32,000 nt of DNA from the NCBI RefSeq assembly GCF_000284115.1, contig NC_017080.1, positions 3,150,001-3,182,000 on the forward strand, given 5' to 3'. The DNA comes from Phycisphaera mikurensis NBRC 102666. Lineage in GTDB: Bacteria > Planctomycetota > Phycisphaerae > Phycisphaerales > Phycisphaeraceae. Shown here one piece after another: positions 6,937 through 28,425 of the stretch. The translations under genes were made by a program, and so were the position numbers. Under the pieces are notes generated by a model that was not told where the DNA came from, made no database searches, and saw only the letters and a list, made by a program, of their open reading frames with translations. Position 1 is the first letter of the stretch; every line of letters begins with the position of its first letter.

Positions 6937-6982
6937 CCGCGGACCGTTGCCGGTTTCCGCGCGAAACGGCCGCGGTCCGCGG
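6937..6982. repeat. 46-bp palindromic element CCGCGGACCG-N26-CGGTCCGCGG, copy 1
   Basis: Arms are exact 10-bp inverted repeats. The spacer ttgccggtttccgcgcgaaacggccg is itself hairpin-forming. The copy sits in the 55-bp gap between convergent aroB and the SMP-30-like gene, so it probably also acts as a bidirectional terminator. Confidence 0.9.
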
Positions 6983-6989
6983 GCGGGCG

Positions 6990-7904
6990 TCACCCGCAGG
7001 CGATGCGGGAGCGGTGCCGCGGGGCGCCGCGGACGCCGGGCATCTCGGCGACGAAGAGCGCCCCCTCGGGCGACGACGCGGGGTCTTCGGGGTTGCCCCC
7101 GGCGGTGGTGACGCAGGCGGTGGCGAGGCCGGAACCGGCGAAGGCGATCGCGGTCACCTTGTCCACGGGCAGCTCGATCGCCCGCGAGGCCTCGCCGGTC
7201 GCCGGGTCGTGCTCCCACACGCCGCGGCCGCCCCAGCGGGCGCTCCAGAGGCGGCCGGCCTCGTCCATCGCCATGCCGTCGCAGCCGCAGCCGGCCTCCT
7301 CGAAGAAGACCGCGCGGTCGGTCAGGTCGCCGGTGGCCGGGTCGTAGGCGTAGCGGTAGATGCGGCCGGGCGTGGTGTCCGTGAGGTAGAGGTGGCGTCC
7401 GTCGGGCGTGAAGCCCATGCCGTTGGGGATGCCGAAGCCCTCGTCGACGACCCGGGTCGAGCCGTCGGGGTCGAGCCGGAGGAGCTTCCCGGTCATGTCG
7501 GCGCCGTCGCCCTCGAAGTTGCTCATCGTGCCGCTGAAGAGGCGGCCGGCCGGATCGGCGAGGCAGTCGTTGAAGCGGGTGCCCGGGCACAGCCCCTCGT
7601 GGACCGTCGTCTGCCGGCCGCCGTCGAAACGCTGCACGTGGCCCTCGGCGCCGAGCAGGAGCAAGGCCCCGTCGGCCTCGAGCGAGGCGGCGCCGACGGG
7701 CGGGCCGGTGCGGACCGTCTCGGGTACCGCTCCCGCGGCCGGGGTGCCGTCGGCCTCGGTGGCGAGCCGGAAGAGCCGGCCGGTGACGATGTCGATCCAG
7801 TAGAGGGCCCGCTCGTCGGGGTGCCAGAGCGGGTTCTCGCCGCACGCGCAGCCCGTCTGCGCGACGCGGCGGGCGGGGACGGGTCGGTTCGGGGGGGCGT
7901 CCAT
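6990..7904 (-). CDS. SMP-30/gluconolactonase/LRE-like beta-propeller protein
   Basis: GENPLWHP...LYWIDI, RFNDC..DP.GR, GIPNGMGFTPDG..LYLTDT and DGMAMDE.GRLW are typical of regucalcin/gluconolactonase. ATG at 7904 is preferred over 8021. Confidence 0.85.
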   Translation of the reverse strand: MDAPPNRPVPARRVAQTGCACGENPLWHPDERALYWIDIVTGRLFRLATEADGTPAAGAVPETVRTGPPVGAASLEADGALLLLGAEGHVQRFDGGRQTTVHEGLCPGTRFNDCLADPAGRLFSGTMSNFEGDGADMTGKLLRLDPDGSTRVVDEGFGIPNGMGFTPDGRHLYLTDTTPGRIYRYAYDPATGDLTDRAVFFEEAGCGCDGMAMDEAGRLWSARWGGRGVWEHDPATGEASRAIELPVDKVTAIAFAGSGLATACVTTAGGNPEDPASSPEGALFVAEMPGVRGAPRHRSRIACG

Positions 7905-8011
7905 GGGGGCCGGGTTCCGTGCTAGATTCGAGATCTTCCGGCCGGATCGTAATCCCCGGCTTCCGCGCGGTTTCGCGTTTTCCCCCGTTTCCGGCCCCGA
8001 CACCCCGCGCC

Positions 8012-8629
8012 ATGGCTGCACCCACCCGAACCCTCGCCGCCGCGCTTCTGATCGCCCCGCTCGCCCTCGTTGGCTGCGGCGGCGAGGAGCCCGCCGCCGG
8101 GCTGGCGGACACGACCGACGGCCTGGTCGAGGCGTCGTCGGAGCGGCACGAGGCCTCGGAGGCGTTCACCGAGGCCGCCGCGGCCGCGGAAGCCGCGACG
8201 GCCGAGGCCGAGGCGGCGCTGGCCGAGCGGGCGCCGGCGATCGAGGCGGAGATCCAGGAGGACCTCGCCACCGCCACCGCCGAGCTCGACGCCGCGAAGG
8301 CGGCGCTGGGCCGCCAGGCCGACGATCTCTTCGGCGAGGTCGAGGCCGCCATCGCCGAGCGTCGCTACCCGCAGGCGCAGGCGGCCCTGGAGACGCTGGA
8401 GGCCATGCCCCACGCCGGGGGCGAGCCCGCGGCGGGCTTCACCGACCGCATCGCCGCGGCGGAGGCGGCGCTGGAAGAGGCCCAGGCCGGCGACGAGGCG
8501 ATCGGCTCGGCGCAGGCGGCCATCGATGCCGCGAAAGCGACGGCGGACCGGCCGCCCGCGGCGGCGGCGGAGGCCGCGCCGGAGATCGGGCGGCCGCCGG
8601 AGACGCAGACGCCGGCCCTGGAGAAGTGA
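8012..8629 (+). CDS. Ala/Glu-rich helical lipoprotein
   Basis: The signal peptide with lipobox MAAPTRTLAAALLIAPLALVGC is followed by a low-complexity A/E-rich helical sequence. Confidence 0.6.
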   Translation: MAAPTRTLAAALLIAPLALVGCGGEEPAAGLADTTDGLVEASSERHEASEAFTEAAAAAEAATAEAEAALAERAPAIEAEIQEDLATATAELDAAKAALGRQADDLFGEVEAAIAERRYPQAQAALETLEAMPHAGGEPAAGFTDRIAAAEAALEEAQAGDEAIGSAQAAIDAAKATADRPPAAAAEAAPEIGRPPETQTPALEK

Positions 8630-8647
8630 GCGGACCCGCTCCGCCGC

Positions 8648-10000
8648 TCAGCGGCGGGCCACCAGCAACGCGGCGATCGTGGCGCCCTGGAAGACCAGCG
8701 TCGCCAGCGCCCACCGCTGGAAGAGCGCGTCGTCGCCGGCCGCCATCCACAGAGCGCCGAGCAGGCAGACGAGCGTGAGGGCTTGGAGCACGAGCGCGAC
8801 GATCGTCGCGGCGGAAGCGTCGCCGCCGCCGCGGTTCCCCCGCAGCTCGTGGAGGATCTGCTGCAGGATCTTCGCCGAGGGCTCGGCGGGTGCGGCGGGT
8901 GCGGCGGGTGCGGCGGGTGCGGCCTCGCCGCGGACCGCGGGCGGATCCGGCGGATGGGGCCGACGGTCCGCGGTCTCCGCGGCTCCCGCGGGCGCGGGCG
9001 CGGGCGCCGGGGCAGCCGATGCGGCGTCGGGCGCGGGAGCCGGCGGCGCGGGATCGGCCGGCTTCGGAGGGTCCTGCCGGCCGCGGGCCCGCTGCATCGC
9101 CCGCTCGACCACCGGGCGTCCCCGATCGATCAGGGCGTTGACGGGTGCCTCGACGAGCGGGCCGCTCTCCTCCTCGGGCGGCAGGCTCAGCGGGCGGAAG
9201 GCCCGCCCCGGGGCCCGCTTCGGCTCCTGCGGAGGCGTGGGCGGATCCGCGGGCGGTGGCGTGGCGGAGGCCGGCGGAGCGGTCTTCACGGGCGGGCCCG
9301 CGGCGACGCGGTGGCGCTCGGTGTGGCGCTGCGAGGCGATCACCCGGACGGCCTCGACGAGCGTGCCGGCGAAGAAGTCGGGGCGGTGGGCTTCGGCGGC
9401 GGCCTCGGCGGCTTCGTCCCCGCCGCTGTTCTTCTTCGCTTGCTCGCGGGCCAGCTCCCCGAGCCGGGCGGGGGACAGGCGCCCGGCCTCGGGGTGCAGC
9501 AGCACGGTGCGGCAGCCGGCGGCTTCGCCGGCCTGCGTGTCGCGGAACGCGTCGCCCACCATCCACGAGCGGGCGAGGTCGAGCTTCAGGTCTTCGGCGG
9601 CGCGGAGCATCATGCCCGGGGCCGGCTTGCGGTCTGGGTGCTCGCGGGTGTACGCCTCGTCGCTGCCCTCGGGGTGGTACGGGCAGAAGTAGTAGCCGGC
9701 GACCGTCGCGCCGTTGGCCCCGTGCTCGAGCAGCGCGTCGATGCGGGCGTGCACCGCCTCGACGTCGGCCTCGCCGTACTTGCCGCGGGCCACGCCGCCC
9801 TGGTTGGTCACCACGACGACCTGGAAGCCGAGGCCGCGGAGCGAGGCGACGGCCATCGCCGCGCCCTGCACGAGCTCCACCTTGGCCGGGTCGCCCAGGT
9901 CGCCGGTGTTGTGGATCAGCGTCTCGTCGCGATCCAGGAAGACCGCGGGCGAGCGACCGGCCTCCGGCTTCGCGTTCGCGGGGGCGGCGGCCACGCTCAC
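8648..10000 (-). CDS. GmhB-like HAD-IIIA phosphatase fused to a Pro/Ala-rich linker and a C-terminal membrane anchor
   Basis: The N-terminus carries FLDRDETL, VVVTNQGGVARG, YFCPYHP, RKPAPGM and MVGD, as in D,D-heptose-1,7-bisphosphate or histidinol phosphatases. About 190 aa of P/A-rich sequence follow, then two hydrophobic helices (IVALVLQALTLVCLLGALWMAA, LATLVFQGATIAALLV). The GTG start overlaps the gmk stop (GTGA). Confidence 0.8.
   Translation of the reverse strand: MSVAAAPANAKPEAGRSPAVFLDRDETLIHNTGDLGDPAKVELVQGAAMAVASLRGLGFQVVVVTNQGGVARGKYGEADVEAVHARIDALLEHGANGATVAGYYFCPYHPEGSDEAYTREHPDRKPAPGMMLRAAEDLKLDLARSWMVGDAFRDTQAGEAAGCRTVLLHPEAGRLSPARLGELAREQAKKNSGGDEAAEAAAEAHRPDFFAGTLVEAVRVIASQRHTERHRVAAGPPVKTAPPASATPPPADPPTPPQEPKRAPGRAFRPLSLPPEEESGPLVEAPVNALIDRGRPVVERAMQRARGRQDPPKPADPAPPAPAPDAASAAPAPAPAPAGAAETADRRPHPPDPPAVRGEAAPAAPAAPAAPAEPSAKILQQILHELRGNRGGGDASAATIVALVLQALTLVCLLGALWMAAGDDALFQRWALATLVFQGATIAALLVARR
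8885..8920. repeat. perfect 9-bp tandem repeat (GGCGGGTGC)x4 inside the GmhB-fusion linker
   Basis: It encodes the (AAP)n run APAAPAAPAAPA on the minus strand and lies 7 bp from 46-bp element copy 2. Confidence 0.9.
8928..8973. repeat. 46-bp palindromic element, copy 2 (inside coding sequence)
   Basis: Both arms are exact, with spacer cgggcggatccggcggatggggccga. It is translated as ADRRPHPPDPPAVRG within the disordered linker of the GmhB-fusion gene. Confidence 0.9.
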
Positions 10001-10623: not shown

Positions 10624-10629
10624 CGGCGG

Positions 10630-10635: not shown

Positions 10636-10648
10636 CGGGGCGGCCGCC

Positions 10649-12633: not shown

Positions 12634-12639
12634 GCCGGG

Positions 12640-13734: not shown

Positions 13735-13780
13735 CCGCGGACCGCCGGCGCCAAACGCCCCGCACGCCCGCGGTCCGCGG
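13735..13780. repeat. 46-bp palindromic element, copy 3
   Basis: Both arms are exact, with spacer ccggcgccaaacgccccgcacgcccg. The right arm is partly duplicated (cggtccgcggtccgcgg). It lies 15 bp downstream of the 2-hydroxyacid dehydrogenase stop. Confidence 0.9.
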
Positions 13781-13794
13781 TCCGCGGATTCTCT

Positions 13795-15313: not shown

Positions 15314-17428
15314 TCAACGGCCCAGCTCGGCGAGCGACGCCCGCAGGGCGTCGATGGCGAGCAGGCCCGAGGCGGTCGGCCCGATCGGCAGGCGGGCGTC
15401 ATGGAAGGCCAGCCGCAGCCCGCCGACGGCATTCCGCGGCGAGCGGGCGTAGTAGAGGGACGGCCCGTCCATCGCCAGCTGCGCGAGGAAGCCGGCGGCG
15501 GAGCCGGCGCTGATCAGCAGGCCCGAGCGTGCCGCGTCCGCGGGGGTCGCCTCGCCGGATCCGAAGCCCGTGAGCCCCAGGCTGAGGAACTGCAGCAGCG
15601 GCGCGGTCGTCCAGGTGGGATCGGCATGGCCACCCGGCGGCGGCGGCCGCAGCAGGAAGCCGCCGAGCACGTCGGCGGGCGCATCGACCGGACGCTGCAC
15701 CACCTGCCGCTCCTGCAGGACCGGCAGCACGGCCTCGAGGACGCCCCGCCGGCGAGCGGCTTCCCCGGCCGGGACCAGGCCGCGCTCGACGAGCGCCGGC
15801 GTCACCTCAGCGGCGGCCCGGGCGACCCAGGGCAGCGAGAAGCCGGCGCCCACGACGGCGCCGTCGCCCTCCGCCCAGACGGCGTCGAGCACCTCTGCGC
15901 CCGCCGCCACCTGCGCCTCGTCGGCCGCCGCGAGCCCGTGCAGACCCAGCGCGTACCCGGCCATCGCGCGGACCGTCAGCGACACCCCGGCCGTCGGGGT
16001 GCCGTCCGCGGCCGGCCTCCGGCTCACCGCGCCGCCGCCGCAGCGGGCCAGCAGCTCCGCGGCGAAGCGACGGCTGATCGGGTCCGCCTCGCCCCCTCGG
16101 GTCGCGAGGCGGGCGAGCGTCAGCAGCGCGGCGGGGGCGGGATCCAGCGCCACCTCCGGCGCGGGCCCAGCGGCGTCGTCGCCCACGCCCAGGGCGCGGC
16201 GGGCCTCCTCGGGCGGCATGTCCAGAGCGGCGGCGATCTCCTCGAGGTAGCCCGGCACGCGGCTGGAAACGCGGGCCGGCGGCGGGCGATCCTCCGCGGC
16301 GGCGAGCTCGGCGTTGAGCCGGTCGTGCTCGGCGAGGGCGAGGCAGCCCAGCGCCGCGTCCTGGAGGTCCGCCAGCGAGGGATCGAAGCGGCCGCGGGCG
16401 GGCAGCCAGGTGCCGCGGACCGGACCGGCGGGCGGGTAGTGCCGCTCCAGGTGCCCCGCGAGGCGGTCGGCGAGGTCCTCCACCGTCGCGGCGTCGAGCC
16501 TGTGGCGCGGCAGCGGCACGTTCCCGCGCTCCAGCACCGCCACGGCGGCGCCCCGCGCCGGCCGCACGGCGTGCACCACCCGGAACCGGAACAGCGGCGC
16601 CCCGCCCGGCCGCCCCGGGGTGTCCGCCTCCGCCAGCGGGAGGCCCAGCGCCAGGGCCACCCGGTTGAGCTGGAGGCGCGGCCGGAGGTTCTGCGCCAGC
16701 GTGGTCGCCGGCCACTCCGCCGCGGGCGCCTCCCGCGCGTCCCCGGACAGCGCCATGAGCCCGTGGTAGCCGGGCACGAAGCGGTCGACCGGCCCCGCCG
16801 CCGGATCGCCCGCCGCCGGAGCCACCACCGCCTCCGCGCCGAAGGCGACCTGCACGTCCGCCTGGATCCGGTCCGCCACCTCCGGGAGCCGCGGGACCGC
16901 GCCGACGCCTTCCAGCGTCGGCCGCCGGCCCTGCTCCCGCGCCCGGGCCGCGGCCTCGGTGAGCCAGCCGGCGGCCGCGCGGAAGGCCTCGACGCCCGCC
17001 TCCTGCGTCAGCGCGTACGTGTCCGCCGGCGCGTCGTCCGGCCGGCCGTCCCGCACGTCCGCGAGCCGCGGCCGGAGCACCTCCGGCCGCACCCAGGCCG
17101 TGCCCGTGCCCAGCAGCACGCCGTCGCTCCGCAGCGTCACCCGCACCCCGAGCACCCCCGCCGCCTCGAAGCCCCGCTCCCGCTGCGCGTCGATCGCCCC
17201 CTCGGCCAGCCAGCGCTCCACCCGCCGCTGCAGCTGCAGGCCCAGGGCCGCATCCGGTCGCGGCGGGGGGAGCGGCGCGGCGGCCGGCGGCGACGCCTCC
17301 GCCTCCGGGAGCGCCGGGCCACCCGCCTGCGCCCCCGCGAGCGGGGCGGGGGCCGCCAGCAGCAGGCAGAGCAGTCCGGTCGGGAGGATCGTGCGGGATC
17401 GGGGGAATCGGGGCATCGGGTGCATCAT
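15314..17428 (-). CDS. large secreted protein of unknown function
   Basis: The signal peptide is MMHPMPRFPRSRTILPTGLLCLLLAAPAPLAGAQA, followed by about 670 aa with normal composition for this genome. The upstream third of the 1054-aa track ORF is antisense to lipB and was discarded. Confidence 0.65.
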   Translation of the reverse strand: MMHPMPRFPRSRTILPTGLLCLLLAAPAPLAGAQAGGPALPEAEASPPAAAPLPPPRPDAALGLQLQRRVERWLAEGAIDAQRERGFEAAGVLGVRVTLRSDGVLLGTGTAWVRPEVLRPRLADVRDGRPDDAPADTYALTQEAGVEAFRAAAGWLTEAAARAREQGRRPTLEGVGAVPRLPEVADRIQADVQVAFGAEAVVAPAAGDPAAGPVDRFVPGYHGLMALSGDAREAPAAEWPATTLAQNLRPRLQLNRVALALGLPLAEADTPGRPGGAPLFRFRVVHAVRPARGAAVAVLERGNVPLPRHRLDAATVEDLADRLAGHLERHYPPAGPVRGTWLPARGRFDPSLADLQDAALGCLALAEHDRLNAELAAAEDRPPPARVSSRVPGYLEEIAAALDMPPEEARRALGVGDDAAGPAPEVALDPAPAALLTLARLATRGGEADPISRRFAAELLARCGGGAVSRRPAADGTPTAGVSLTVRAMAGYALGLHGLAAADEAQVAAGAEVLDAVWAEGDGAVVGAGFSLPWVARAAAEVTPALVERGLVPAGEAARRRGVLEAVLPVLQERQVVQRPVDAPADVLGGFLLRPPPPGGHADPTWTTAPLLQFLSLGLTGFGSGEATPADAARSGLLISAGSAAGFLAQLAMDGPSLYYARSPRNAVGGLRLAFHDARLPIGPTASGLLAIDALRASLAELGR

Positions 17429-17635: not shown

Positions 17636-18397
17636 GTGCCTCCAGGTTCCCCCCCGCCAGCGCCGGCGTCGATGCTCCGGACCGAAGACCTCGGCGTCTG
17701 CCCCTACGAGGAGGCCCTGCGGATCCAGCGGGCCGCTCACGCCGAAGTCGCCGCCGGCGGCCCCGAGCGGCTGCTGCTCGTCGAGCACCCCGCCGTGATC
17801 ACCCTCAGCCGGCGCCGCGGCGTGCGCCGGAACCTGCTGGTCTCGGAGGACTGCCTCGCCACGCGCCGCATCGACCTGCAGGAGACCGACCGCGGCGGCG
17901 ACGTCACCGCGCACGGCCCCGGCCAGCAGGTCGTCTACCCGATCCTCCGGCTCGCGGACCACCGGCTGAACCTCTCCCGCTACATGCGGCTGCTCGAGGA
18001 GGCGGCCATCGCCACCGCCGCCGCCTTCGGCGTCGCCGCCCACCGCGAGGCCGGCGCCACCGGGGTGTGGGTCGCCCGCCCGGGGAGCCGCGGCGGCGAG
18101 GTGCAACCGACCGCGAAGCTCTGCGCCCTGGGCGTCCGGATCGCCAAGAACACCACCCTCCACGGCCTCGCCTTCAACGTCCGCACCGACCTGGGCATCT
18201 TCGCGTTGATCGACCCCTGCGGCCTCGGCGGGCGGCCGGTGACCTCCTTGCTCGACCTGCTCGGCGACGCCTGCCCGGGGATGGACGAGGTCCGCGAGGC
18301 GCTGGTCGGGGCCCTCGTGGACGCCCTCGCCGCCGCGGACCGCGGCGGATCCGGGCCGTTGCCGCCCGCGGTCCGCGGCGATAGGCTGCCCGCGTGA
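17636..18397 (+). CDS. lipB: octanoyltransferase (lipoyl(octanoyl) transferase)
   Basis: LRTEDLGV.PYEEAL..Q....LLLVEHP.V.TL....LQETDRGGDVT.HGPGQ.V.YPI...KL.A.GVR....T.HGLA.NV are LipB motifs. The start is GTG 17636 by the leaderless pattern, or ATG 17672. The last ~20 codons derive from 46-bp element copy 4. Confidence 0.9.
   Translation: MPPGSPPPAPASMLRTEDLGVCPYEEALRIQRAAHAEVAAGGPERLLLVEHPAVITLSRRRGVRRNLLVSEDCLATRRIDLQETDRGGDVTAHGPGQQVVYPILRLADHRLNLSRYMRLLEEAAIATAAAFGVAAHREAGATGVWVARPGSRGGEVQPTAKLCALGVRIAKNTTLHGLAFNVRTDLGIFALIDPCGLGGRPVTSLLDLLGDACPGMDEVREALVGALVDALAAADRGGSGPLPPAVRGDRLPA
18333..18378. repeat. 46-bp palindromic element, copy 4 (forms the lipB 3' coding end)
   Basis: Both arms are exact, with spacer cggcggatccgggccgttgccgcccg. 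It is translated as ADRGGSGPLPPAVRG just before the lipB stop. Confidence 0.9.
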
Positions 18398-18591: not shown

Positions 18592-20187
18592 ATGGAAGCC
18601 TCCCCCGCCCCCTCCGTCAAGATCTTCGACACCACCCTGCGCGACGGCGAGCAGTCGCCGGGCGCGTCGCTGGACCTCCGCGAGAAGCTGGAGATCGCTC
18701 GGCAGCTCGAGAAGCTCGGCGTCGACGTCATCGAGGCCGGCTTCCCGATCACCTCCGACGGCGACTTCGAGGCCGTCCGCGCGATCGCCGACGAGCTGAC
18801 CGGGCCGGTGGTCTGCGGGCTGGCCCGCTGCGTGGAGGCCGACATCGACCGCGCCGGCGAGGCGGTCCGCGGAGCCAGAGGCGGGGCGAGGATCCACGTC
18901 TTCTGCGCCACCTCCAAGATCCACCGCGAGCACAAGCTGCGGAAAGGCACCGCCGAGATCGTCGCGCTCTCGCGTCGCTCCATCGAGCGGGCCCGCGGCT
19001 TCGTCGACGACGTGGAGTTCAGCCCCGAGGACGCCAGCCGCACCGAACCGGAGGTGCTGGTGGAGATCTGCGCCGCCGCCATCGAGGCCGGCGCCACCAC
19101 GCTGAACCTGCCCGACACCGTCGGCTACGCGGTGCCCGCGGAGTACGGCCGCATCTTCGCGATGCTCCGGGCGCAGCTGCCGCAGATCGACCGCGACGGC
19201 GTCGTGCTCTCCTGCCACTGCCACGACGACCTGGGCCTGGCCATCGCCAACACGCTGGCCGCCATCGAGAACGGCGCCCGCCAGGCCGAGGTCACCGTCA
19301 ACGGCATCGGCGAGCGGGCCGGCAACGCCGCGCTCGAGGAGCTGGTGATGGCGCTGGCCGTGCGGGCCGATGCCGCCGGCGGCGGCGGCGTGAACACCGG
19401 CATCCGACGCCGGGAGATCTACAAGAGCTCCCGCATGGTCTCCACGCTGACCGGCCTCTCCGTGCAGCGCAACAAGGCCGTGGTCGGCGAGAACGCCTTC
19501 GCCCACGAGAGCGGCATCCACCAGGACGGGATGCTCAAGAACCCCGAGACGTACGAGATCATGGACCCCCGCTCGATCGGCGTGCCCGAGAGCAAGCTGG
19601 TGCTGGGCAAGCACAGCGGACGGGCCGCGCTGGCCGACCGGCTGCGCGACCTGGGCATCGAGGCGAGCGGCGAGGTCCTGCAGGCGGTCTACGACCGCTT
19701 CAAGACGCTGGCGGACCGCAAGAAGGAGGTCCACGACGAAGACCTCGAAGCGATCGTGGACGACCTGCACGCGTCCGCCGCGGGCCCCGCCGGCACCGGG
19801 CGCGGCGCCTGGACGCTGCACGGCTTCCAAGCGGTCGCCAACGCCGGCACGCCCAGCTTCGCCTTCGTGGAGCTGGTGGACCCCGACGGCGAGACCCGCC
19901 GCGAGGCGGCCTTCGGCGACGGGCCCATCGAGGCCTGCTACTCGGCCGTGCAGCTGATCACCGGCGTCACCGCCAGCCTCGACCGCTACGCCCACCGCGC
20001 CGTCACCGGCGGCAAGGACGCGCAGGGCGAAGTGCGCGTGGAGCTCTCCACGGACGACGGACGCAAAGCCCGCGGACGCGGGCTCTCGACCGACACGATC
20101 GAGGCCGCCGTCAAGGCGTACGTGGCCGCGATGAACCGGCTCGCGACGCGGGCGGCCGAGCCGGCGTCGGTGCCGGCTCAGCCCTGA
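18592..20187 (+). CDS. leuA: 2-isopropylmalate synthase
   Basis: VKIFDTTLRDGEQSPG, IEAGFP, HCHDDLGLA.AN.LAA and a C-terminal LeuA dimerisation/regulatory domain are present. ATG 18592 is preferred over GTG 18541. Confidence 0.95.
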   Translation: MEASPAPSVKIFDTTLRDGEQSPGASLDLREKLEIARQLEKLGVDVIEAGFPITSDGDFEAVRAIADELTGPVVCGLARCVEADIDRAGEAVRGARGGARIHVFCATSKIHREHKLRKGTAEIVALSRRSIERARGFVDDVEFSPEDASRTEPEVLVEICAAAIEAGATTLNLPDTVGYAVPAEYGRIFAMLRAQLPQIDRDGVVLSCHCHDDLGLAIANTLAAIENGARQAEVTVNGIGERAGNAALEELVMALAVRADAAGGGGVNTGIRRREIYKSSRMVSTLTGLSVQRNKAVVGENAFAHESGIHQDGMLKNPETYEIMDPRSIGVPESKLVLGKHSGRAALADRLRDLGIEASGEVLQAVYDRFKTLADRKKEVHDEDLEAIVDDLHASAAGPAGTGRGAWTLHGFQAVANAGTPSFAFVELVDPDGETRREAAFGDGPIEACYSAVQLITGVTASLDRYAHRAVTGGKDAQGEVRVELSTDDGRKARGRGLSTDTIEAAVKAYVAAMNRLATRAAEPASVPAQP

Positions 20188-21112: not shown

Positions 21113-21487
21113 ATGCCGACCATCAACCAGCTCGTCCGCAACCCCCGCCGCACCCCGACCGAGAAGTCCAAGGTCCGCGACCTCGACCAGTGCCCGCAGC
21201 GCCGCGGCGTGTGCCTGCAGGTGAAGACGGTGACGCCCAAGAAGCCCAACTCCGCCCTCCGGAAGGTCGCCCGCGTGCGTCTGTCCAACGGCGGCGAGGT
21301 CACGGCTTACATCGGCGGCGAGGGCCACAACCTCCAGGAGCACTCGATCGTGCTCGTCCGCGGCGGCCGCGTCCGCGACCTGCCGGGCGTGCGGTACCAC
21401 ATCGTCCGCGGCGCCCTCGACTCGCTGGGCGTCGACGGCCGCAAGCGGGGCCGCAGCAAGTACGGCGTGAAGAAGCCCAAGGGGTGA
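21113..21487 (+). CDS. rpsL: 30S ribosomal protein S12
   Basis: MPTINQLVR...[68 protein letters not shown] motif precedes the ATG. Confidence 0.98.
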
Positions 21488-21789
21488 ACCCGCCTCCGGC
21501 AAGGTGCGCTCGGGGCGTTTGGGGCTCCGACCGGGCGAAGCCCGGTCCGCGCGGGAGGCGGTCGGGTTCAGATTGGGCGGTGCTCCCGAGAGCCTCGACG
21601 CAGCGTGTCCCCGCCCTTTCCTCAGGCGTCTGCTCGTTCGGCTCGCCTTGCTTTTCGTTCTCTCGCTCGACGGCGGGATGGACGCGTTTCCAGCGGCAGT
21701 AATCCACCCCGGCGTTCGGGGCGGGTGAACGCAAGCGGACCGGCGTTGACCGGTCCACCCGCCGCATCAACCCTTCCGAAGGAAGACCC

Positions 21790-22380
21790 ATGGGACGTGG
21801 ATTCACCGCCTCCGAGACGCAGCTCAAGCCCGACCCCCGCCACGGCGACCTCGTGCTCAGCCGCTTCATCAACTGCATCATGAAGGACGGCAAGAAGACC
21901 CGCGCCCAGCGCGTGGTCTACGGCGCCTTCGACCTGATCGACGAGCGCCTCAAGGAGGACGCGGAGAAGGAGGCCGAGGCGAAGAAGAAGGCCGCGGAGG
22001 ACAAGGCCGCCGGCAAGGACGTGAAGCCCACCAACGCCCAGCTCACCGGCACCCCCGAGGAGGAGGAGGGCGAGCGCTCGGCCATCACCCTCTTCCACGA
22101 GGCGCTCGAGAACGTGCGGCCCAACGTCGAGGTGCGCTCCCGCCGCGTCGGCGGAACCAACTACCAGGTCCCGACGCAGGTTTCCAAGAAGCGGGCCCAG
22201 AGCCTCGCTTTCCGCTGGATCATCGACGCCGTCCGCAGCGAGAAGGGCCGCCCCACCGCCCAGAAGCTCGCCCGGGAGCTTTGGGACGCTTCGCACCGCG
22301 AGGGCCGCGCCATGTCCAAGCGCGACCAGACCCACCGCATGGCCGACGCCAACAAGGCCTTCGCCCACTTCGCCTGGTGA
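21790..22380 (+). CDS. rpsG: 30S ribosomal protein S7, with a ~40-aa charged insertion
   Basis: KDGKK..A..VVY.A, ALENVRPNVEVRSRRVGG.NYQVP and HRMA.ANKAFAHF.W are present. At 196 aa it is longer than the ~156 aa typical of S7. Confidence 0.97.
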   Translation: MGRGFTASETQLKPDPRHGDLVLSRFINCIMKDGKKTRAQRVVYGAFDLIDERLKEDAEKEAEAKKKAAEDKAAGKDVKPTNAQLTGTPEEEEGERSAITLFHEALENVRPNVEVRSRRVGGTNYQVPTQVSKKRAQSLAFRWIIDAVRSEKGRPTAQKLARELWDASHREGRAMSKRDQTHRMADANKAFAHFAW

Positions 22381-22489
22381 GCGGCCAAAAAAAGAGTCGA
22401 CGGCTCTGCGCATCCCGCCGCGGAAGCCTGTAAGCTCTTGGCCCCGGGGGAGCAAAACCCCGCGGCGACAACCATCCGGAACCGTCAAT

Positions 22490-22533
22490 GGAACCGCCTT
22501 CGTCATTGCCCGCCCCTTGACGAGGGCGGTTCC
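22490..22533. other. strong stem-loop (16-bp stem with one G-U, 12-nt loop) in the rpsG/flgH convergent gap
   Basis: GGAACCGCCTTCGTCA-ttgcccgcccct-TGACGAGGGCGGTTCC. It has no U-tract and lies 110 nt after the rpsG stop. Confidence 0.6.
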
Positions 22534-22790
22534 GCTATGGGCACTGCGCCATCGGCGGGCGTGACGGGCTGCCCCTACGCTCGCTCTTGCGGCTCGTTTG
22601 AGTCTCCGCGGGGATCACGGCGCCACTGCCGGCTCGCGCCGAACCGGGCACGCTTCAGCATCGGCCCGTGAGGGTGCCATCGTGGCGCCATGCCGGGTCG
22701 CTGCGCAACTTGTCCGATTCGCGGACGCGAGAGCCTCGCGTGCAGCCCAGGTCCGGGCAACGCCCGGCCCCCGCGCAGCGGGAGAGCACG

Positions 22791-22836
22791 CCGCGGACCG
22801 GACCGGTCTTCGGCTCTTTTGGATCACGGTCCGCGG
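22791..22836. repeat. 46-bp palindromic element, copy 5
   Basis: Both arms are exact, with spacer gaccggtcttcggctcttttggatca. It lies in the 667-bp non-coding gap. Confidence 0.9.
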
Positions 22837-22963
22837 ACCGGCGGTGCACCGCACCCACCCGCACCAGCGCGACAACCGCACCTTGACGGGCCGCGTGCTG
22901 ATGCGTGCTCCTGAACATGCTCGGTCCGGCGCGTGCCGGCAGTGGCCAGGTGCTCCACGCGCA

Positions 22964-22982
22964 GAGCGGGCTCCGCCCGCTC
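22964..22982 (-). terminator. hairpin GAGCGGGC-tcc-GCCCGCTC, 66 nt downstream of the flgH stop
   Basis: The 8-bp GC stem is perfect but there is no U-tract. Confidence 0.3.
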
Positions 22983-23047
22983 GAAGCTCAGAACGAGAAG
23001 CAGGAGCGCGCGGAGCGACGCGAGCGTGCCCCCGCGAGGCGGAGCCC

Positions 23048-23791
23048 CTAGAACGGGAACAACGCGTCGATCAGCTTGGTGAGCGGGCCCTTCTTGGTCC
23101 CGCGGCGGAGCTCGCCGTGGTGCTGCTTGGTGAGGTGCAGGTCGTAGAGCTGCGTCGAGAAGATCGTGTTGTCCAGCGTGATGTCGTCGACGCGGCAGGT
23201 GCCGGTGGCCACCAGGGTGACCTCCTCGTCGTCGCTGGCGAGGTGCTTGCGGGCCTCGAGCACGAGCGTGCCGTTGGGTTTCACGTCGATCACGCGGGCG
23301 GTGAGCCGGGCCGACATCGAGTCGCGCCGCTTGTAGTTGCCCTCGCCCTCGAAGCTCCGCTCGGCCTCCAGGTCGAGCGCGATCTCGGGCGTGATGGCCG
23401 ATTCGTTGATGCGCAGCTTCAAGAGGTCGCCCAGGTCGAAGTGGGGAAACTGCTTCACGCCGCCGTCCCACTCGGAGGCCTTCTCCACCTCCAGCTCGCT
23501 CGTGAAGTCGGTCGAGAGGTCCTCGCGGATCACGATCGTCACGAGGTCGTGGAGGCCGTAGGTCCGCGGCGCCGGGCGGGTGACCGCGAACCAGCTCGCC
23601 TGCGCGACGTCGGCGTGGATCGCCCGGAGGTCGGTCTGCCGGCCGGGGCTGGCGATCCGCGGCGTCAAGCGGGCCGGCGGCGGGGCGACCACCTCCGCGG
23701 CGGCCGCGAACTCGGAGAGTCCCTGGCCGGAGGCGGGGGCGGGCGTGGCCGCGAGGAGCAGCGCGGAAACGGCGGGGAAGAGGCGCTTCAT
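23048..23791 (-). CDS. flgH: flagellar L-ring protein FlgH
   Basis: The signal peptide is followed by DLVTI.I.E......TSEL...S.........F and G.G.Y.R.DS....LTA.V..V.PNG.LV.EA...L..D.E......TG..R..DI...NTI.S..L.D, the FlgH pattern. No lipobox Cys is visible. Confidence 0.9.
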   Translation of the reverse strand: MKRLFPAVSALLLAATPAPASGQGLSEFAAAAEVVAPPPARLTPRIASPGRQTDLRAIHADVAQASWFAVTRPAPRTYGLHDLVTIVIREDLSTDFTSELEVEKASEWDGGVKQFPHFDLGDLLKLRINESAITPEIALDLEAERSFEGEGNYKRRDSMSARLTARVIDVKPNGTLVLEARKHLASDDEEVTLVATGTCRVDDITLDNTIFSTQLYDLHLTKQHHGELRRGTKKGPLTKLIDALFPF

Positions 23792-23811
23792 GAAGGGGTT
23801 CCTGCGGGGTG

Positions 23812-24885
23812 TCAAAACCGGTCCACCCGGACCTCGTTCGCCCCGGTGACGACGGCATCCACGGTGCGGGCGCGGGGGCCGCGGGCTTCGCCCAGGCGGA
23901 CGGTGACCGCTTCGCCGAGCGCGGCGTCGCCCTCGGCGAAGCCCTCGGCGACGAGTTCGATGGCGCCGGCGGCGACGCGGACGGTCACGTGGCCGCCGCG
24001 ATCGACCAGCGCCGGCCGGGCGAGGTGGCCGGGCACCAGGCGGGTGCCGGGCCGCAGCGAGACCTCGGCTTCGGCGCCGAGCACGCCGTCGAGGGTTCTG
24101 AGCGGGGCCTCCGCACCGGCGGGCTCGCGGCCGATCGTCACGGCCCGCAACGCCACGTTGGCGGCGCTGAAGGTGTCGCCACGCCGGATCGGCCCGGTGG
24201 CCACGGCGGCGAGCACCTCGCGCTCGGTCTCCACGGAGACGGTGTGCAGCGTGAGGGCGCCTTCGGGATCGCGCTCCTCGATCCGCACGCTCACGCGGCC
24301 CAGCCGGGGCCGTCCCAGCGGCTCGACACGGAAGCGGGTCCCGTCCGCGGGCCGGGCAAGCAGCGCCGCGTCGTCGGCGGCGGCCGTGACGCGGAGGTCG
24401 TCGTGGTCGTCGGGGCTCAGGCCGAGCCAGCCCGCGAGCCGGTGGCGGAGGCGGTCGCCGAGGGGATCCGCCGCCGGCGGTGCGGGCGTGGCCCCCGCCG
24501 CCGGAGCGGGCGAGCCCGCCGCGACCGGGGCGGGCGTCGGGGGCGCTGCGGCCGGGGCGGGCAGGTTCCGCACCTCCACCGCGCAGGCCGCCACCCCGCG
24601 CAGCCGGAGCCGTCCCAGGTTCGCCCCGCTCTCCGCCAGCGCCACCCGCACCGCGTCCAGGGTCACCGAGACGGAGCCGCCCGCGGCGGTCGCGACGACC
24701 ACCGGCCCGAGGGTCTCCACCGCCCCGCCCCCGAGCTCCATCACGTCCGACACGCGGACCGTCGGCCCCGCCACCACCGCCGCCGGCCGGAGCGTCAGCA
24801 CCGCCTCCCCGCGGGCGGCACCCGCGGCGACGAGCACGCACAAGCACGGGAGCAGCCAAACCGGTCCGCGGGAGAGAGAGGGCAT
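23812..24885 (-). CDS. flgA: flagellar basal-body P-ring formation protein FlgA
   Basis: A signal peptide is followed by a C-terminal SAF/FlgA domain (I.RGD......V......V.........L.G.......L..G..L....L..P.LV.RG..V.V......I.....G.A...GA.GE.V.V). It sits between flgG and flgH. ATG 24885 is the start. Confidence 0.8.
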   Translation of the reverse strand: MPSLSRGPVWLLPCLCVLVAAGAARGEAVLTLRPAAVVAGPTVRVSDVMELGGGAVETLGPVVVATAAGGSVSVTLDAVRVALAESGANLGRLRLRGVAACAVEVRNLPAPAAAPPTPAPVAAGSPAPAAGATPAPPAADPLGDRLRHRLAGWLGLSPDDHDDLRVTAAADDAALLARPADGTRFRVEPLGRPRLGRVSVRIEERDPEGALTLHTVSVETEREVLAAVATGPIRRGDTFSAANVALRAVTIGREPAGAEAPLRTLDGVLGAEAEVSLRPGTRLVPGHLARPALVDRGGHVTVRVAAGAIELVAEGFAEGDAALGEAVTVRLGEARGPRARTVDAVVTGANEVRVDRF

Positions 24886-25054
24886 TGGCCTCCACGAAGC
24901 AACGCCCGTGCCGGCGGGGGGCCGCGCCGAATCCGCCGACCGCACCGCCCCAGCCGCGTGCCGGCACGGGCCTCGCTCGGTCCGCGACACCCGCGGCGGC
25001 CAGCCGCCGGGGAGCGCACCGGCGGCCGCGGAGCCGCCGGCGTGCCCCGGTGCT

Positions 25055-25864: not shown

Positions 25865-25918
25865 AACGAGTCAGAGTGCGCGGCGGGAACGGTGCGGGGG
25901 ATCAAGGCTGTGCCCGCG

Positions 25919-26183
25919 TGGGAGGGCGGGTGCGGGGAGGGCGACTTTGCCCAGCGAGGAAGTGAGGAAGCGAGGAAGTCAGAAAGGCAGGGAGGCGGGA
26001 AACGAGAAGGTCAGGAAGCGTGGAAGCGGAGCGGTGAGCAGAGCGGGCGGAGCGTCCAGTTCGGATTGCTGACTTCTTCGCTTCCCCACTTCTTCGCTTC
26101 TTCGCCTCCCTACTTCTTCGCTTCCTCGCTTCTCCGCTTCCTCGCTTCTCCGCCTCCCTACTTCTTCGCTTCCCCCCCTCCCC
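25919..26183. repeat. large imperfect inverted repeat of GA-rich (left) and CT-rich (right) short-repeat arrays in the flgF-flgG gap
   Basis: Exact complementary blocks are GAAGCGAGGAAG 25967-25978 versus CTTCCTCGCTTC 26121-26132 and 26137-26148, and AGGGAGGCGG 25989-25998 versus CCGCCTCCCT 26150-26159 (9/10 at 26102-26111). CTTCTTCGCTTC recurs at 26073, 26089, 26113 and 26161. Confidence 0.85.
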
Positions 26184-26184
26184 A

Positions 26185-26961: not shown

Positions 26962-27194
26962 GCGGCCACCGCTTCCGCCGCCAGGGCCGCGAGCTTCGCC
27001 GCCTGGGTGCCGCCCCAGGCGGCCGCGAGCGTGGCCCGCCGGGCGTGTTCGGCCGCCGCCCGCTCCGCGAGCTCGGCGACGCACGCGTCCAGGTCCGCGA
27101 GGGCCGCGGCGTCGCCGGCCGCGAGGGCTTCGAGGTCGACGCCGCGCTGCGCGAGGACGTCGAGCCAGCACGAGGGGGTGGCGGGGATCTGCAC
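26958..27194 (-). CDS. small Ala-rich helical protein of unknown function, translationally coupled to flgF
   Basis: The open frame spans 26958..27221. I favour GTG 27194 (78 aa) because the first codons of the longer form coincide with a sigma54 promoter whose predicted transcription start site (TSS) is about 27194. Coding status is uncertain. Confidence 0.35.
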   Translation of the reverse strand: MQIPATPSCWLDVLAQRGVDLEALAAGDAAALADLDACVAELAERAAAEHARRATLAAAWGGTQAAKLAALAAEAVAA

Positions 27195-27205
27195 GCCCGG
27201 CTCAC

Positions 27206-27220
27206 GCAAGGCGGGTGCCA
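27206..27220 (-). promoter_or_regulatory. sigma54 (RpoN)-type promoter TGGCAC-N5-TTGC upstream of flgF
   Basis: Minus strand reads gTGGCACccgccTTGCg, matching the -24 GG/-12 GC consensus TGGCAC-N5-TTGCW at all 10 core positions. It lies 44 nt after the hydrolase stop and about 245 nt before the flgF start. Confidence 0.5.
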
Positions 27221-27263
27221 CGCCGGCGGCCGGCAGAAGCTGCGCTCCGGCGCACCGCGCGTT

Positions 27264-28358
27264 TCAGGCGAGGCCGAGGTCCTCGTAGAGCGCGGCCAGC
27301 GTCGTGTGCAGCCGCTGCTGGTGGGCCAGCTCGCCGGGCATCCCGTCCCAGACGACGGCGGCGGCGAGGCCGTGCGCCGGATCGGCGAAGCCGACCGCGC
27401 ACTGGTTGCCGCCGTGGCCGAAGGCCCCGTCGCTGGCGTGCGGCCCGAAGCCGTACGGCACCAGCTCGCGGCCGTGCCGCTTGGAGTCGATGGCGACGCC
27501 CAGGCCCCAGTCGATCGTCGCCTTGAAGGTCGCGTCCTCCAGGCCCTCCCGCTGGCGCGAGGACACGGCCGCGGCGGTGGCCGGTTCCAGCACGCGGACG
27601 CCGTCGAGCGTTCCGGCCGGGTCGGCCTCGTCCAGCAGCATCCGGTAGAGCCGGACCAGCCCCGCCGCGGGCCCGCGGTTGTTCGCGCCCGGCTTGGGGT
27701 TCGTGCACCAGGCCTCGGCCGCGTAGCCGGGATCCGCCGGCGGGTTCTGGGTGGTGTCCAGCGTTGCGACGAGCCGGCCGGCGTCATGGAGCGCCGCCCA
27801 AGCTGCGGGCGTCATCCCGCAGTGGCAGTCCCGCATGCCCAGCGGCCCCAGCGCCCGCGCCTCCGTCGCCTCGATGACGCCCAGGCCCGATGCCGTCTCC
27901 AGGAGCGCCCCCAGCGTGTACCAGCTCGTGTACACGTGATACCCGGCCCGCTCGCCGGGCGACCAACGCGGCTCCTGCCGCGCCGCGTTCACCGCCTCGA
28001 CGGCCTCCGCCCACGGCGTCCGCGGGTGATCCAGCACGGCCGCCCGGAAGCCGGACGTGTGCGTGAGCAGGTGGCGGATCGTCGTGCCCGCCTTCCCGTT
28101 GCGCTCGAAGCCGGGCAGGTGCGACGCCACCTCGTCGTCGAGGCCCAGCCGCCCCGCGTCCACCTCCGCGAGCACCGCCACCGCGGTCACCGGCTTGCCC
28201 GCCGACATCCAGAGCATCACGCCGTCGCGCGTGGCGGAGCCGAAGGCCTCGTCCGCCACCGGCTCGCCCCCGAGGAACGCGACGGCCTGCGCCCCCGCGT
28301 GCCGGCCCGCCGCCACGCCTTCCTCGAAGATCGCCCGGGTCCGGGTCAAGCCGCTCAT
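27264..28358 (-). CDS. beta-lactamase-fold serine hydrolase (class C beta-lactamase/esterase/DD-peptidase-like family)
   Basis: An SxxK motif (MSAGKPVTA) sits at the expected N-terminal position, with LLTHTSG and a C-terminal HGG motif as in the PF00144-type family. ATG 28358 is preferred over 28559. Confidence 0.8.
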   Translation of the reverse strand: MSGLTRTRAIFEEGVAAGRHAGAQAVAFLGGEPVADEAFGSATRDGVMLWMSAGKPVTAVAVLAEVDAGRLGLDDEVASHLPGFERNGKAGTTIRHLLTHTSGFRAAVLDHPRTPWAEAVEAVNAARQEPRWSPGERAGYHVYTSWYTLGALLETASGLGVIEATEARALGPLGMRDCHCGMTPAAWAALHDAGRLVATLDTTQNPPADPGYAAEAWCTNPKPGANNRGPAAGLVRLYRMLLDEADPAGTLDGVRVLEPATAAAVSSRQREGLEDATFKATIDWGLGVAIDSKRHGRELVPYGFGPHASDGAFGHGGNQCAVGFADPAHGLAAAVVWDGMPGELAHQQRLHTTLAALYEDLGLA

Positions 28359-28379
28359 GGAGACGTTGTACGGGCGGAT

Positions 28380-28425
28380 CCGCGGACCGTGGGGCTTTCC
28401 GCACGATCGGGCCCGCGGTCCGCGG
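28380..28425. repeat. 46-bp palindromic element, copy 6
   Basis: Both arms are exact, with spacer tggggctttccgcacgatcgggcccg. It lies between the rpsA terminator and the hydrolase start. Confidence 0.9.

Follow-up and report, generated by a model that had tools for sequence, protein, structure and literature searches.

What is a 46-bp two-armed palindrome doing at six places between and within genes of Phycisphaera mikurensis, always with the same arms and the same spacer length? In the window (the whole 32,000-nucleotide stretch of the chromosome analyzed here), a sequence-only reading had listed six copies of CCGCGGACCG-N26-CGGTCCGCGG. It had proposed either a mobile or recombination-propagated element of the REP/RPE/MITE type or a recognition site for a protein of fixed geometry. 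All six copies were confirmed at the coordinates given, with exact arms and a 26-nt spacer, and none of 100 dinucleotide-preserving shuffles of the window contained a match.

Abundance and spacing of the element

The site consists of two exact inverted 10-bp arms lying 26 bp apart, and its density is about one per 5 kb. In 60.8 kb of P. mikurensis sequence, no other 10-mer is as frequent as the arm. It occurs 32 times, 22 times paired at N26 and 10 times as a solitary arm, the latter being a modest excess over a rough composition-based estimate. The N26 copies comprise 11 exact ones and two near-exact ones with one and two mismatches, respectively, and there is none with three. Spacings other than N26 are virtually absent from P. 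mikurensis, except for trivial shadows at 19 and 33. About 50 copies with N26 were found across P. mikurensis and its relatives, and the exact-arm exceptions are one N24 and one N25, both in relatives. In unrelated high-GC genomes, in contrast, the same arms pair at every spacing from 12 to 40, with no length favored (26 accounts for 3 of 121 pairs).

The P. mikurensis sequence surveyed amounts to about 1.6% of the genome, to which about 150 kb from relatives was added. Thus, the genome-wide copy number and the periodicity are extrapolations; at about one site per 5 kb, several hundred sites would be expected on the 3.8-Mb chromosome. The intervals between P. mikurensis sites are more even than under uniform placement (CV 0.50, P = 0.009, for 11 intervals over only 55 kb). 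No match to the element was found in 2.9 million viral contigs, and no Rfam match reaches the gathering score in the window. The literature search, which covered one paper collection, turned up no description of the element, in agreement with the earlier remark that no described family has this signature.

Copies, half-sites and gene contexts

According to the gene calls of the source assembly, the contexts are as previously described: copies 1 and 5 lie between convergent genes, copies 3 and 6 between same-direction genes, and copies 2 and 4 in coding sequence. Copy 1 (6937–6982) separates a 3-dehydroquinate synthase gene (stop at 6934) from a gene for an SMP-30/gluconolactonase-like protein (stop at 6990). 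Copy 2 (8928–8973) is inside an annotated 448-aa ORF on the minus strand (8648–9994), in its low-complexity C-terminal part, and is read in the frame xCC GCG GAC CGx. Copy 3 (13735–13787, with the N26 unit at 13735–13780) starts 14 bp after the stop of a 2-hydroxyacid dehydrogenase gene, and its right arm is tandemly duplicated by 7 nt (CCGCGGT), giving a second right arm with N33 at 13778–13787. An exact copy is also found 3′ of the orthologous gene in lineage L191 (11259). Copy 4 (18333–18378) lies within the final 21 codons of lipB, whose stop is at 18397, 3′ of the part for the catalytic domain, where it encodes A-A-D-R...A-V-R-G; L190 and L191 have copies immediately 3′ of lipB. Copy 5 (22791–22840, with the N26 unit at 22791–22836) lies between the convergent rpsG and flgH genes, and an additional left arm at 22831–22840 overlaps its right arm. 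No counterpart was found downstream of rpsG in L127. Copy 6 (28380–28425) is 214 bp 3′ of rpsA and 21 bp 5′ of the start of a beta-lactamase-family gene.

A degenerate seventh copy, GCGCGGACCG-N26-CCGTCCGCGG at 15966–16011, has one mismatch per arm. It is inside a 700-aa gene without a Pfam match and shares the reading frame of the other coding copies. The half-sites previously noted at 16413–16422 (plus strand), 24862–24871 (minus) and 28627–28636 (plus) are real, but those at 1604–1613 and 18863–18872 (both minus) had been missed. Two extra arms abut copies 3 and 5, as described above.

Including the rest of the 60.8 kb, six of the 13 P. mikurensis copies are inside annotated coding sequence, even in conserved parts of thyA and of a DUF389 gene, and intergenic DNA is about 8-fold enriched for copies. 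Intergenic copies are found between convergent, tandem and divergent genes alike, and the orientation of the copies is unrelated to the direction of transcription. Five of the six independent coding copies use the frame xCC GCG GAC CGx.

Phased A/T patches in the spacer

Is the spacer simply a variable loop? Its sequence does vary, as had been stated, and the similarities pointed out between copies hold (copies 1 and 6 share TTTCCGC[GA]CGA, copies 2 and 4 share GGCGGATCCGG, and the spacers of copies 3, 4 and 6 end in GCCCG). However, a positional pattern qualifies this description. The spacer is rich in G+C except for two A/T patches at positions 7–10 and 17–20, where the A/T fraction is 0.51 as compared to 0.19 elsewhere. 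There is also a Y/R preference at the first and last spacer bases; the half-site is CCGCGGACCG-Y. After symmetrization, the A/T peaks fall at element coordinates −3 to −1, 7, 11 and 17–20 and at the mirror positions. A/T thus recurs about every 10 bp over about 52 bp (peak spacing 9–12 bp, about 10 on average), in the arm centers, in the spacer patches and in the A/T-rich outer flanks, whose consensus is gaat/att. The distance between the arm midpoints, 36 bp, corresponds to a non-integer 3.4 helical turns. The A/T patches have random strand polarity (same in 29 cases, opposite in 22), which is what a feature of duplex DNA should give.

Excess complementarity is confined to spacer positions 1 and 26, while positions 2–13 are complementary no more often than expected from shuffles. 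Co-variation of positions 1 and 26 is mostly due to differing lineage preferences, and the pairing signal is marginal inside one metagenome (P = 0.03). The spacer also contributes little to fold stability (mean z −0.7). Its interior is neither random nor paired as a hairpin. In relatives, the oriented copies have a loose interior consensus, TCGsCGGTTTCG... In the BIME-1 (RIP/RIB) elements of Escherichia coli, a site for IHF, which bends DNA, lies between two inverted REPs. Unlike BIME-1 and RIP, none of 71 elements contains the IHF consensus WATCARNNNNTTR.

Conservation of position and origin in place

The relatives compared are metagenome-assembled lineages. Five of them (L127, L182, L183, L184 and L191) have the same arms and spacing at one copy per 2.6–5 kb, while a sister lineage (L128, L185 and L190) has only about two copies in 41 kb. 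Copies in thyA, in the DUF389 gene and in the divergent intergenic region upstream of the S30AE gene occupy orthologous positions across lineages. In the syntenic block, P. mikurensis has three copies, and L182 keeps them all. In the retained copies, 58 of 60 arm positions and 66 of 78 spacer positions are identical between P. mikurensis and L182, while only 59.7% of 4-fold sites (946 of 1584) are identical. The mismatched copies are changed on one side only, and a search among them for compensatory arm pairs found none. Together, these comparisons support purifying selection on the arms, although continuous homogenization, by gene conversion or a nuclease-repair drive, could mimic it. The element is non-random, clade-specific, nearly fixed in spacing and conserved in position.

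Some gains differ among close lineages (L183:14312, L182:629, L182:6498 and copy 5 of the window). The flanks of these copies are too diverged to be aligned, and they may have been inserted. In addition, five copies in L183 are embedded in a tandem array.

How did the thyA copy arise? Its spacer encodes the conserved segment R-T-[FI]-D-Q-I-S, including the DQI motif, and four lineages keep the exact arms though synonymous sites in the spacer vary. In L182 and L183, the A/T-ending codons GAA, GGA, TTG and ATT, which are uncommon in such G+C-rich genomes, make both the palindrome and the A/T patch longer. In the outgroup L185, whose thyA is 78% identical, there is the right side only (TCGTCCGCGG) and no left arm. 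Whether or not it carries the arms, the gene is equally long and its codons are homologous. Because the outgroup carries just a partial right arm, the copy arose in place via substitutions. It is thus not an insertion but native coding sequence that was changed where it stood.

A candidate site for a symmetric DNA-bending protein

I favor, with a probability of roughly one half, a reading of the element as a bipartite recognition site in double-stranded DNA, with a symmetric DNA-bending protein as its candidate reader and the organization of the chromosome as its likely role. The near-invariant N26, the selection suggested for the arms, the phased A/T and the lack of self-complementarity support the fixed-geometry site proposed earlier. 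Since selection seems to preserve the site even within essential genes, it is probably a place where a putative DNA-bending protein docks, rather than a jumping element. This protein, two-fold symmetric as a dimer or as a dimer of dimers, would contact both arms and bend or wrap the DNA between them. Sites would be created in place by point substitutions where the local sequence permits, mostly in intergenic DNA, or in coding DNA in a single frame with preferred codons. They would be maintained by purifying selection or an equivalent drive, not spread by transposition. Protein binding, DNA bending and a cellular function are what I infer from these patterns, and chromosome architecture (nucleoid organization) is the most likely function, DNA uptake being less likely. 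To my knowledge, there is no established precedent among bacterial architectural proteins for sites of at least 20 specified bases at hundreds of copies.

The closest parallel may be HIP1 (GCGATCGC), a hyper-abundant palindrome of cyanobacteria. According to PMC5861425, HIP1 is conserved across genomes both inside ORFs and in the DNA between them, a pattern that favors selection over neutral replenishment. Its chromosomal spacing is non-random, and a role in nucleoid structure was proposed there, no gene-level role having been found. The present element likewise has conserved positions in coding and non-coding DNA and conservation beyond the neutral expectation (arms versus 4-fold sites), and its spacing, judged from 55 kb, may be non-random as well. 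Unlike HIP1, a single 8-bp palindrome present at up to more than one per gene, it is a 46-bp bipartite site in which 20–22 bases are specified and a 26-bp spacer of fixed length carries phased A/T patches, and it occurs about once per 5 kb.

Alternative explanations

Could the element be mobile after all? As a non-autonomous REP/REPIN- or MITE-like element, its arms would be ends, as DNA hairpin or duplex, recognized by a single-copy transposase such as RAYT, and they would remain intact as only intact copies would transpose. The numerous dispersed copies, their intergenic enrichment, the lineage-specific ones, the L183 array and the loose interior consensus of the relatives would fit. So would the likeness to REPINs, which, according to PMC3116915 and PMC3337134, have inverted conserved ends around a less conserved middle of constant length and are dispersed, mostly intergenic and vertically persistent. 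REPINs, however, form a long hairpin, are extragenic, and have GTAG/CGTC heads and a cognate RAYT. Here, the interior is unpaired, intragenic copies seem made in place, and such a tetramer occurs within 10 nt in just 8 of 66 flanks, so that there is no consistent head. Palindromic repeats in-frame within functional genes are also known from Rickettsia RPE and intragenic REPs (PMC3733652), but those insertions add residues, while the thyA copy overlays pre-existing homologous codons. Nor is there a target-site duplication, flank identity being limited to 2-mers (9 of 66) and 3-mers (2 of 66), with no 4-mers or longer. Positions are conserved despite near-saturated synonymous divergence, and arm changes are one-sided and uncompensated. 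No transposase domain is among the Pfam matches recorded in about 60 kb of P. mikurensis and about 150 kb of relatives. The mobile reading, one of the two proposed at the outset, is therefore weakened and now unlikely; the three orthologous copies look largely like ancient, conserved parts of their contexts.

The same duplex-site anatomy could have another function and force behind it, if a transformation receptor preferred site-bearing DNA and alleles gained by mutation spread by recombination, as a DNA-uptake-type signal or another "self" tag under molecular drive. Uptake sequences (Haemophilus USS and Neisseria DUS) are likewise clade-specific, high in copy number (hundreds to thousands), of point-mutation origin, positionally conserved, enriched in intergenic DNA, often in inverted pairs, and found in coding DNA in favored frames and where the protein segment is tolerant (reported in part in PMC2817400). 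The frame bias of the coding copies and the absence of the element from viral contigs agree with this, and genes in the vicinity include one of the ComEA-like HHH_3 type and others for pili. In Haemophilus, helically phased A/T tracts flank the USS core. However, a single core of 9–12 bp suffices for USS and DUS, whose inverted pairs have variable short loops, while the unit here is the N26 pair, a 46-bp palindrome, and solitary arms are a minority (10 of 32). The density is about 4-fold below that of USS/DUS, more-even-than-random spacing is not predicted, and I know of no report of natural competence in Phycisphaerae. I consider an uptake signal quite unlikely. It is very improbable that the element is a transcribed or single-stranded hairpin, with a 10–11-bp G+C stem and a 24–26-nt loop, acting as a terminator, an mRNA 3′-end stabilizer or a processing site. 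Four of the six copies in the window are located at the 3′ ends of genes, predicted RNA folding energies are about −19 kcal/mol for the arms alone and about −30 kcal/mol for whole elements, and folds are slightly more stable than with shuffled spacers (mean z −0.7). But intrinsic terminators have a short loop and a U-run, whereas the loop here is long, does not vary in length and lacks self-complementarity, its A/T patches are strand-indifferent, and there is no T-run. Orientation without relation to transcription, the lack of compensatory arm changes and of an Rfam match, and the conserved copies in divergent promoter regions and in thyA and DUF389 coding sequence also speak against a hairpin. 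The earlier statement that a plain terminator is insufficient thus holds. A by-product of G+C-rich codon usage (Ala-Asp-Arg or Val-Arg-Gly words) has practically no probability. The arms do consist of preferred codons, and CCGCGG is the commonest G+C hexamer palindrome of the region (291 in 60.8 kb). Chance and codon usage are refuted by the shuffles, the exclusive N26 peak and the other high-GC genomes, and the copies are mostly intergenic.

Implications of a proposed duplex protein site

Few genome-wide motifs are known to be selected (USS/DUS, Chi, KOPS and HIP1), and such motifs each revealed a machinery, namely uptake receptors, RecBCD and FtsK, while the function of HIP1 is not agreed upon. 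For the docking site favored here, a more specific version is conceivable, though doubtful. A putative new sequence-specific DNA-wrapping protein would read a 46–52-bp two-armed site at several hundred roughly even positions and would organize the chromosome or mark or take up "self" DNA, with selection recoding essential genes such as thyA. If true, this would add a new class to the genome-wide architectural or recognition signals of bacteria, and the phylum is one whose cell biology is atypical and FtsZ-less. Since the site has 20–22 specified bases, a rigid spacer and a bendability pattern, DNA-affinity capture should easily find the reader protein. Cultures of P. mikurensis exist, as does its complete genome sequence (AP012338).

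The thyA case suggests that DNA-level selection can override codon preference in an essential enzyme gene, and that a family resembling mobile elements can be built in place. This is relevant to annotation and to models of the origin of dispersed repeats.

Two further features of the window had been related to the arms. The presumed zero-spacer relative is GCGCGGACCGCGG at 3985–3997, which differs by one mismatch from the 13-bp palindrome CCGCGGWCCGCGG. The direct repeats reported near the end of the window are present at 31616–31651 as about three units of a 10–11-bp repeat.

Form, abundance, and placement of the element

A search of the window for CCGCGGACCG and CGGTCCGCGG separated by 20 to 32 nt returned exactly six matches, at 6937-6982, 8928-8973, 13735-13780, 18333-18378, 22791-22836, and 28380-28425 (copies 1 to 6), and the spacer is 26 nt (N26) in every one of them, as had been noticed in the sequence-only reading. 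The same pattern had no match in 100 dinucleotide-preserving shuffles of the window, and chance is an extremely improbable account of the element. Single arms with at most one mismatch number 59 in the window vs. 28 ± 5.5 expected; the G+C content of the window is 69-80%. An extended 52-mer form of the element is gaatCCGCGGACCG-N26-CGGTCCGCGGattc, and nothing alignable is common to the six loci beyond 46 bp.

The readable P. mikurensis region, consisting of the window and adjoining sequence (60.8 kb in all), has 11 exact and two near-exact copies (35976 with one mismatch and 15966 with two), so that N26 pairs with 0, 1, 2, and 3 mismatches number 11, 1, 1, and 0. At up to two mismatches, no pair occurs at any other spacing between 18 and 34, bar trivial shadows at 19, due to the internal self-similarity of the arm, and at 33, due to a 7-nt duplication in copy 3. 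In this region, CCGCGGACCG is the commonest 10-mer, outnumbering GC-rich simple-sequence words; of its 32 occurrences, 22 sit in N26 pairs. Extrapolated rather than counted, 13 sites per 60.8 kb correspond to several hundred sites per chromosome.

By exact protein matches, the window belongs to contig JACHEL010000002.1 of assembly GCA_014207395.1, and identical LeuA and ThyA proteins carry the name P. mikurensis. The gene contexts were assigned by Pfam matches and the gene calls of this assembly. The window genes are ordinary chromosomal genes (pckA, hisF, aroB, gmk, rmlD, rpiB, lipB, leuA, rpsL-rpsG, flgHAGF, rpsA, and speA). Copies 1 and 5 lie between convergent genes and copies 3 and 6 between same-direction genes, and a start codon follows copy 6 after 21 bp; copy 2 is within a 448-aa ORF and copy 4 lies in the final 21 codons of lipB. 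Thus, the earlier assignment of four copies to sites just downstream of genes or between convergent genes and two to coding DNA agrees with the gene calls. Seven of the 13 P. mikurensis copies are intergenic, and since intergenic DNA makes up an estimated one-eighth or so of the region, the intergenic enrichment is about 8-fold. Convergent, tandem, and divergent intergenic regions all hold copies, and the element is thus no mere terminator; a plain terminator hairpin had already been judged a poor fit, and the copies in divergent intergenic regions and in coding DNA bear this out. Of six coding copies that are independent, five are read in the frame xCC GCG GAC CGx ... xCG GTC CGC GGx, the sole frame built wholly of preferred codons. 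The 11 intervals between neighbouring exact or one-mismatch sites (window -8103 to 46907 of the merged region) have a mean of 5.0 kb and a CV of 0.50, and seven of them are 4.4-5.6 kb long. The placement is more even than uniform random (P = 0.009), which is suggestive only, and gene structure may contribute to it.

Small repeats are found at some copies. At 13768-13787, the tandem duplication in copy 3 (CCGCGGT x2.9) supplies another right arm, at N33. At 22831-22840, an extra left arm overlaps the right arm of copy 5, resulting in a 14-bp palindrome, CGGTCCGCGGACCG. Copy 2 is directly adjoined by a 9-nt repeat (8884-8923, CGGCGGGTG x4.4), which codes for low-complexity sequence rich in Pro and Ala within the 448-aa ORF; a recognisable HAD domain covers only residues 30-170 or so of this ORF.

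Orthologous copies and in-place origin of the thyA copy

Between P. mikurensis and L182, a locus of a related metagenome-assembled lineage, 59.7% of the 4-fold degenerate sites are identical (946/1584), which, at a third-position G+C of over 90%, is close to saturation. In the syntenic block, L182 has all three P. mikurensis copies at matching positions: one in thyA, one in a DUF389 gene, and one between divergent genes, upstream of an S30AE ribosome-hibernation gene. Their arms are identical at 58 of 60 positions and their spacers at 66 of 78. The sequence-only reading had named ancient, conserved copies at orthologous loci as evidence against mobility, and these three copies are of that kind.

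The thyA element reads GS-ADRRTFDQISAAVRG-L, and its spacer codes for an [IF]-D-Q-I segment conserved in all ThyA proteins aligned. Both arms are exact in four lineages at 80-85% protein identity, and the spacer varies among them at synonymous or conservative sites (TTC/ATC/ATT, GAT/GAC, ATC/ATT, and GCG/ACG). In L182 and the related L183, thyA has GAA, GGA, TTG, and ATT (A/T-ending codons, uncommon at such high G+C), and these choices make the palindrome longer on its outer sides (gaat...att) and the A/T patch richer in A/T. One lineage further out, L185 (78% identity) has homologous codons of equal length; its right side has only TCGTCCGCGG, and there is no left arm. Thus, the thyA copy is not an insertion. 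It was assembled by substitutions in the native coding sequence and then held, and for the question of its origin this comparison is decisive. Turnover is seen for L182:629, L182:6498, L183:14312, and window copy 5, all of which are missing from the lineage compared. They may have arisen by insertion or by gain in place, which diverged flanks or a loss of synteny make indistinguishable, also in the filled/empty-site alignments of L183:14312 with L182 and of copy 5 with L127.

Distribution in other genomes

Is the N26 rule inherent in the arm sequence? As a background control, a genome collection was scanned with a variable gap of N12-40, and the matches listed are single ones in unrelated high-GC genomes. 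Their spacer lengths are flat over 12-40, with three of the 121 matches listed at 26. Thus, the N26 rule is lineage-specific and not inherent in the arm sequence.

Contigs of relatives, all from uncultured lineages, were reached via homologues of LeuA, ThyA, and 2-hydroxyacid dehydrogenase. L127 has four exact copies, L182 has four and degenerate ones, L183 has three and degenerate ones (leaving out a tandem array), L184 has one exact and one near-exact copy, and L191 has five exact N26 copies, two near-exact copies, and one exact-arm N24 copy. The density in these five loci is 1 per 2.6-5 kb. In L127, L182, L183 without the array, and L184 together, N26 copies with 0, 1, 2, and 3 mismatches number 12, 5, 3, and 3. 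The only exact-arm length variants are an N25 copy in intergenic DNA (L183 165-209) and the N24 copy, which lies within an ABC-transporter ATPase gene (L191 19470-19513). The loci L128, L185, and L190 of a more distant lineage have one exact and one one-mismatch copy in about 41 kb. From L128 and L185, a sister lineage without the element had been supposed, and this was ruled out by L190 of the same sample, which carries both copies; thus, the density there is low, not zero. By assembly, the ERZ25039505 bins are rich in the element, like P. mikurensis, and the ERZ27264759 lineage is poor in it. A fixed-N26 scan of metagenome contigs found 53 loci, 31 of them from ORX marine assemblies, and no viral contig had a match.

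In L183, a 164/223-bp tandem repeat (3902-4844), partly within a 227-aa ORF with no Pfam match, carries five near-identical element copies. It is adjoined by a 73-bp tandem repeat (2410-3133, x9.9), and MmeI-type restriction-modification genes follow. L127 has BREX-type genes (PglZ and BrxC/BrxD) at 953-3815, and the first 6.9 kb of this locus has no element copy.

Spacer pattern and possible roles

In 66 unique, oriented copies, a loose spacer consensus was found, which is clearest in the relatives; in P. mikurensis it has eroded further. The loop had been described as variable in sequence; its sequence does differ between copies, but its A/T composition is conserved by position. Spacer positions 7-10 and the mirror-image positions 17-20 have A/T fractions of 0.39-0.67, compared with about 0.15-0.24 at other interior positions and about half at positions 1 and 26. 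Over 77 copies, the A/T fraction is 0.51 in the patches vs. 0.19 in the rest, and the pattern is present within each lineage. Counted over arms and spacer, with negative values for the outer flank, the main A/T peaks are near -2, 7, 19, 28, 40, and 49, with half-A/T positions also at 11 and 36. Neighbouring main peaks are separated by 9 to 12 bp, with an average of about 10 bp, which is roughly one peak per helical turn. The strand polarity of the patches is indifferent (29 same, 22 opposite), which ruled out phased T-tracts on one strand, as the oriented alignment had suggested. The idea that GTTTC...GAAAC in copy 1 is parS-like was also dropped, since only a few copies have the inverted arrangement.

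The A/T pattern is characteristic of duplex DNA that bends or wraps around a protein with two sequence-specific arm contacts, not of a hairpin loop. I infer, with a probability of roughly 0.5, that the element is a bipartite site on duplex DNA that is kept by selection, is recognised by a protein, and has a bend built into it. The putative protein would contact the duplex at both arms, with the intervening DNA bent. A site read by a protein of fixed geometry had been one of the earlier proposals, and the near-exclusive N26, the conserved arms, and the phased A/T favour it.

A role as an RNA hairpin is quite unlikely. Each window copy can fold as RNA via its arms, with modest z values of -1.0 to -3.1 against shuffles of the 66-nt neighbourhood. 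When spacer position i was compared with 27-i, excess complementarity over the shuffle expectation was confined to positions 1 and 26 (42 Watson-Crick pairs vs. 26.7 expected), and the inner pairs had none. This signal mostly vanishes within lineages (5 vs. 5.5 expected in P. mikurensis; 21 vs. 15.2 in ORX contigs, P = 0.03), because the lineages differ in having C or T after the arm. Whole elements fold at -30.3 kcal/mol with real spacers vs. -28.3 kcal/mol with shuffled ones (mean z -0.7). Thus, spacer complementarity, the within-lineage re-test, and fold energies added little beyond the arms, and the hairpin reading was rejected. Mismatched copies have single-sided changes only. A 26-bp centre would disfavour cruciform extrusion.

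That the element is a mobile REPIN or MITE is doubtful. The REP/RPE/MITE-like proposal of the sequence-only reading draws some support from the overall architecture and the lineage-specific copies, but it failed several defining tests. No target-site duplication was found (direct flank 3-mers match in 2 of 66 copies and longer words in none), a GTAG/CGTC head is present in 8 of 66 flanks and is not consistent, and the genes recorded for the loci covered include none with a transposase domain. None of the elements has an IHF consensus, and the window has no Rfam match at gathering score. A DNA uptake sequence is a live alternative of low probability; the available text of PMC2817400 describes similar behaviour of uptake sequences in coding DNA. 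The nearest behavioural analogue is HIP1, whose sites are also conserved both inside and between ORFs and for which a role in nucleoid structure has been proposed, according to the available text of PMC5861425. The element works like known selection-maintained genomic words but is unlike them in being long and two-armed, in its rigid spacing, and in carrying a bendability code. Among the papers covered, literature searches found none with the motif string in a bacterial context and no account of palindromic repeats in Phycisphaera, in line with the earlier statement that no such family has been described; a single comparative-genomics study, on Isosphaeraceae, mentions both P. mikurensis and palindromic sequences.

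Other features of the window

A 106-bp tandem repeat (282-690; 3.8 copies, 92% matching) ends at the 3′ end of the PEP carboxykinase gene on the minus strand (stop codon at 693). Between flgG and flgF, AG-rich and CT-rich 16/24-nt tandem repeats (25953-26038 and 26072-26184) are reverse complements of each other; together they make up imperfect inverted repeats of considerable length, whose 24-27-nt arms are 83-85% complementary. Downstream of rpsG, a 79-nt non-coding block (22458-22536) is 94% identical to L127, vs. about 60% at 4-fold sites between such lineages. It has a hairpin with a 17-bp stem (fold z -3.6) and no Rfam match, and is possibly the terminator of the S12-S7 operon or a small RNA. 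In the surrounding region (21113-23791), rpsL-rpsG is not followed by fusA or tuf, and the flagellar flgH-flgA-flgG-flgF cluster converges on it; in L127, the downstream neighbour of rpsL-rpsG is ligA.
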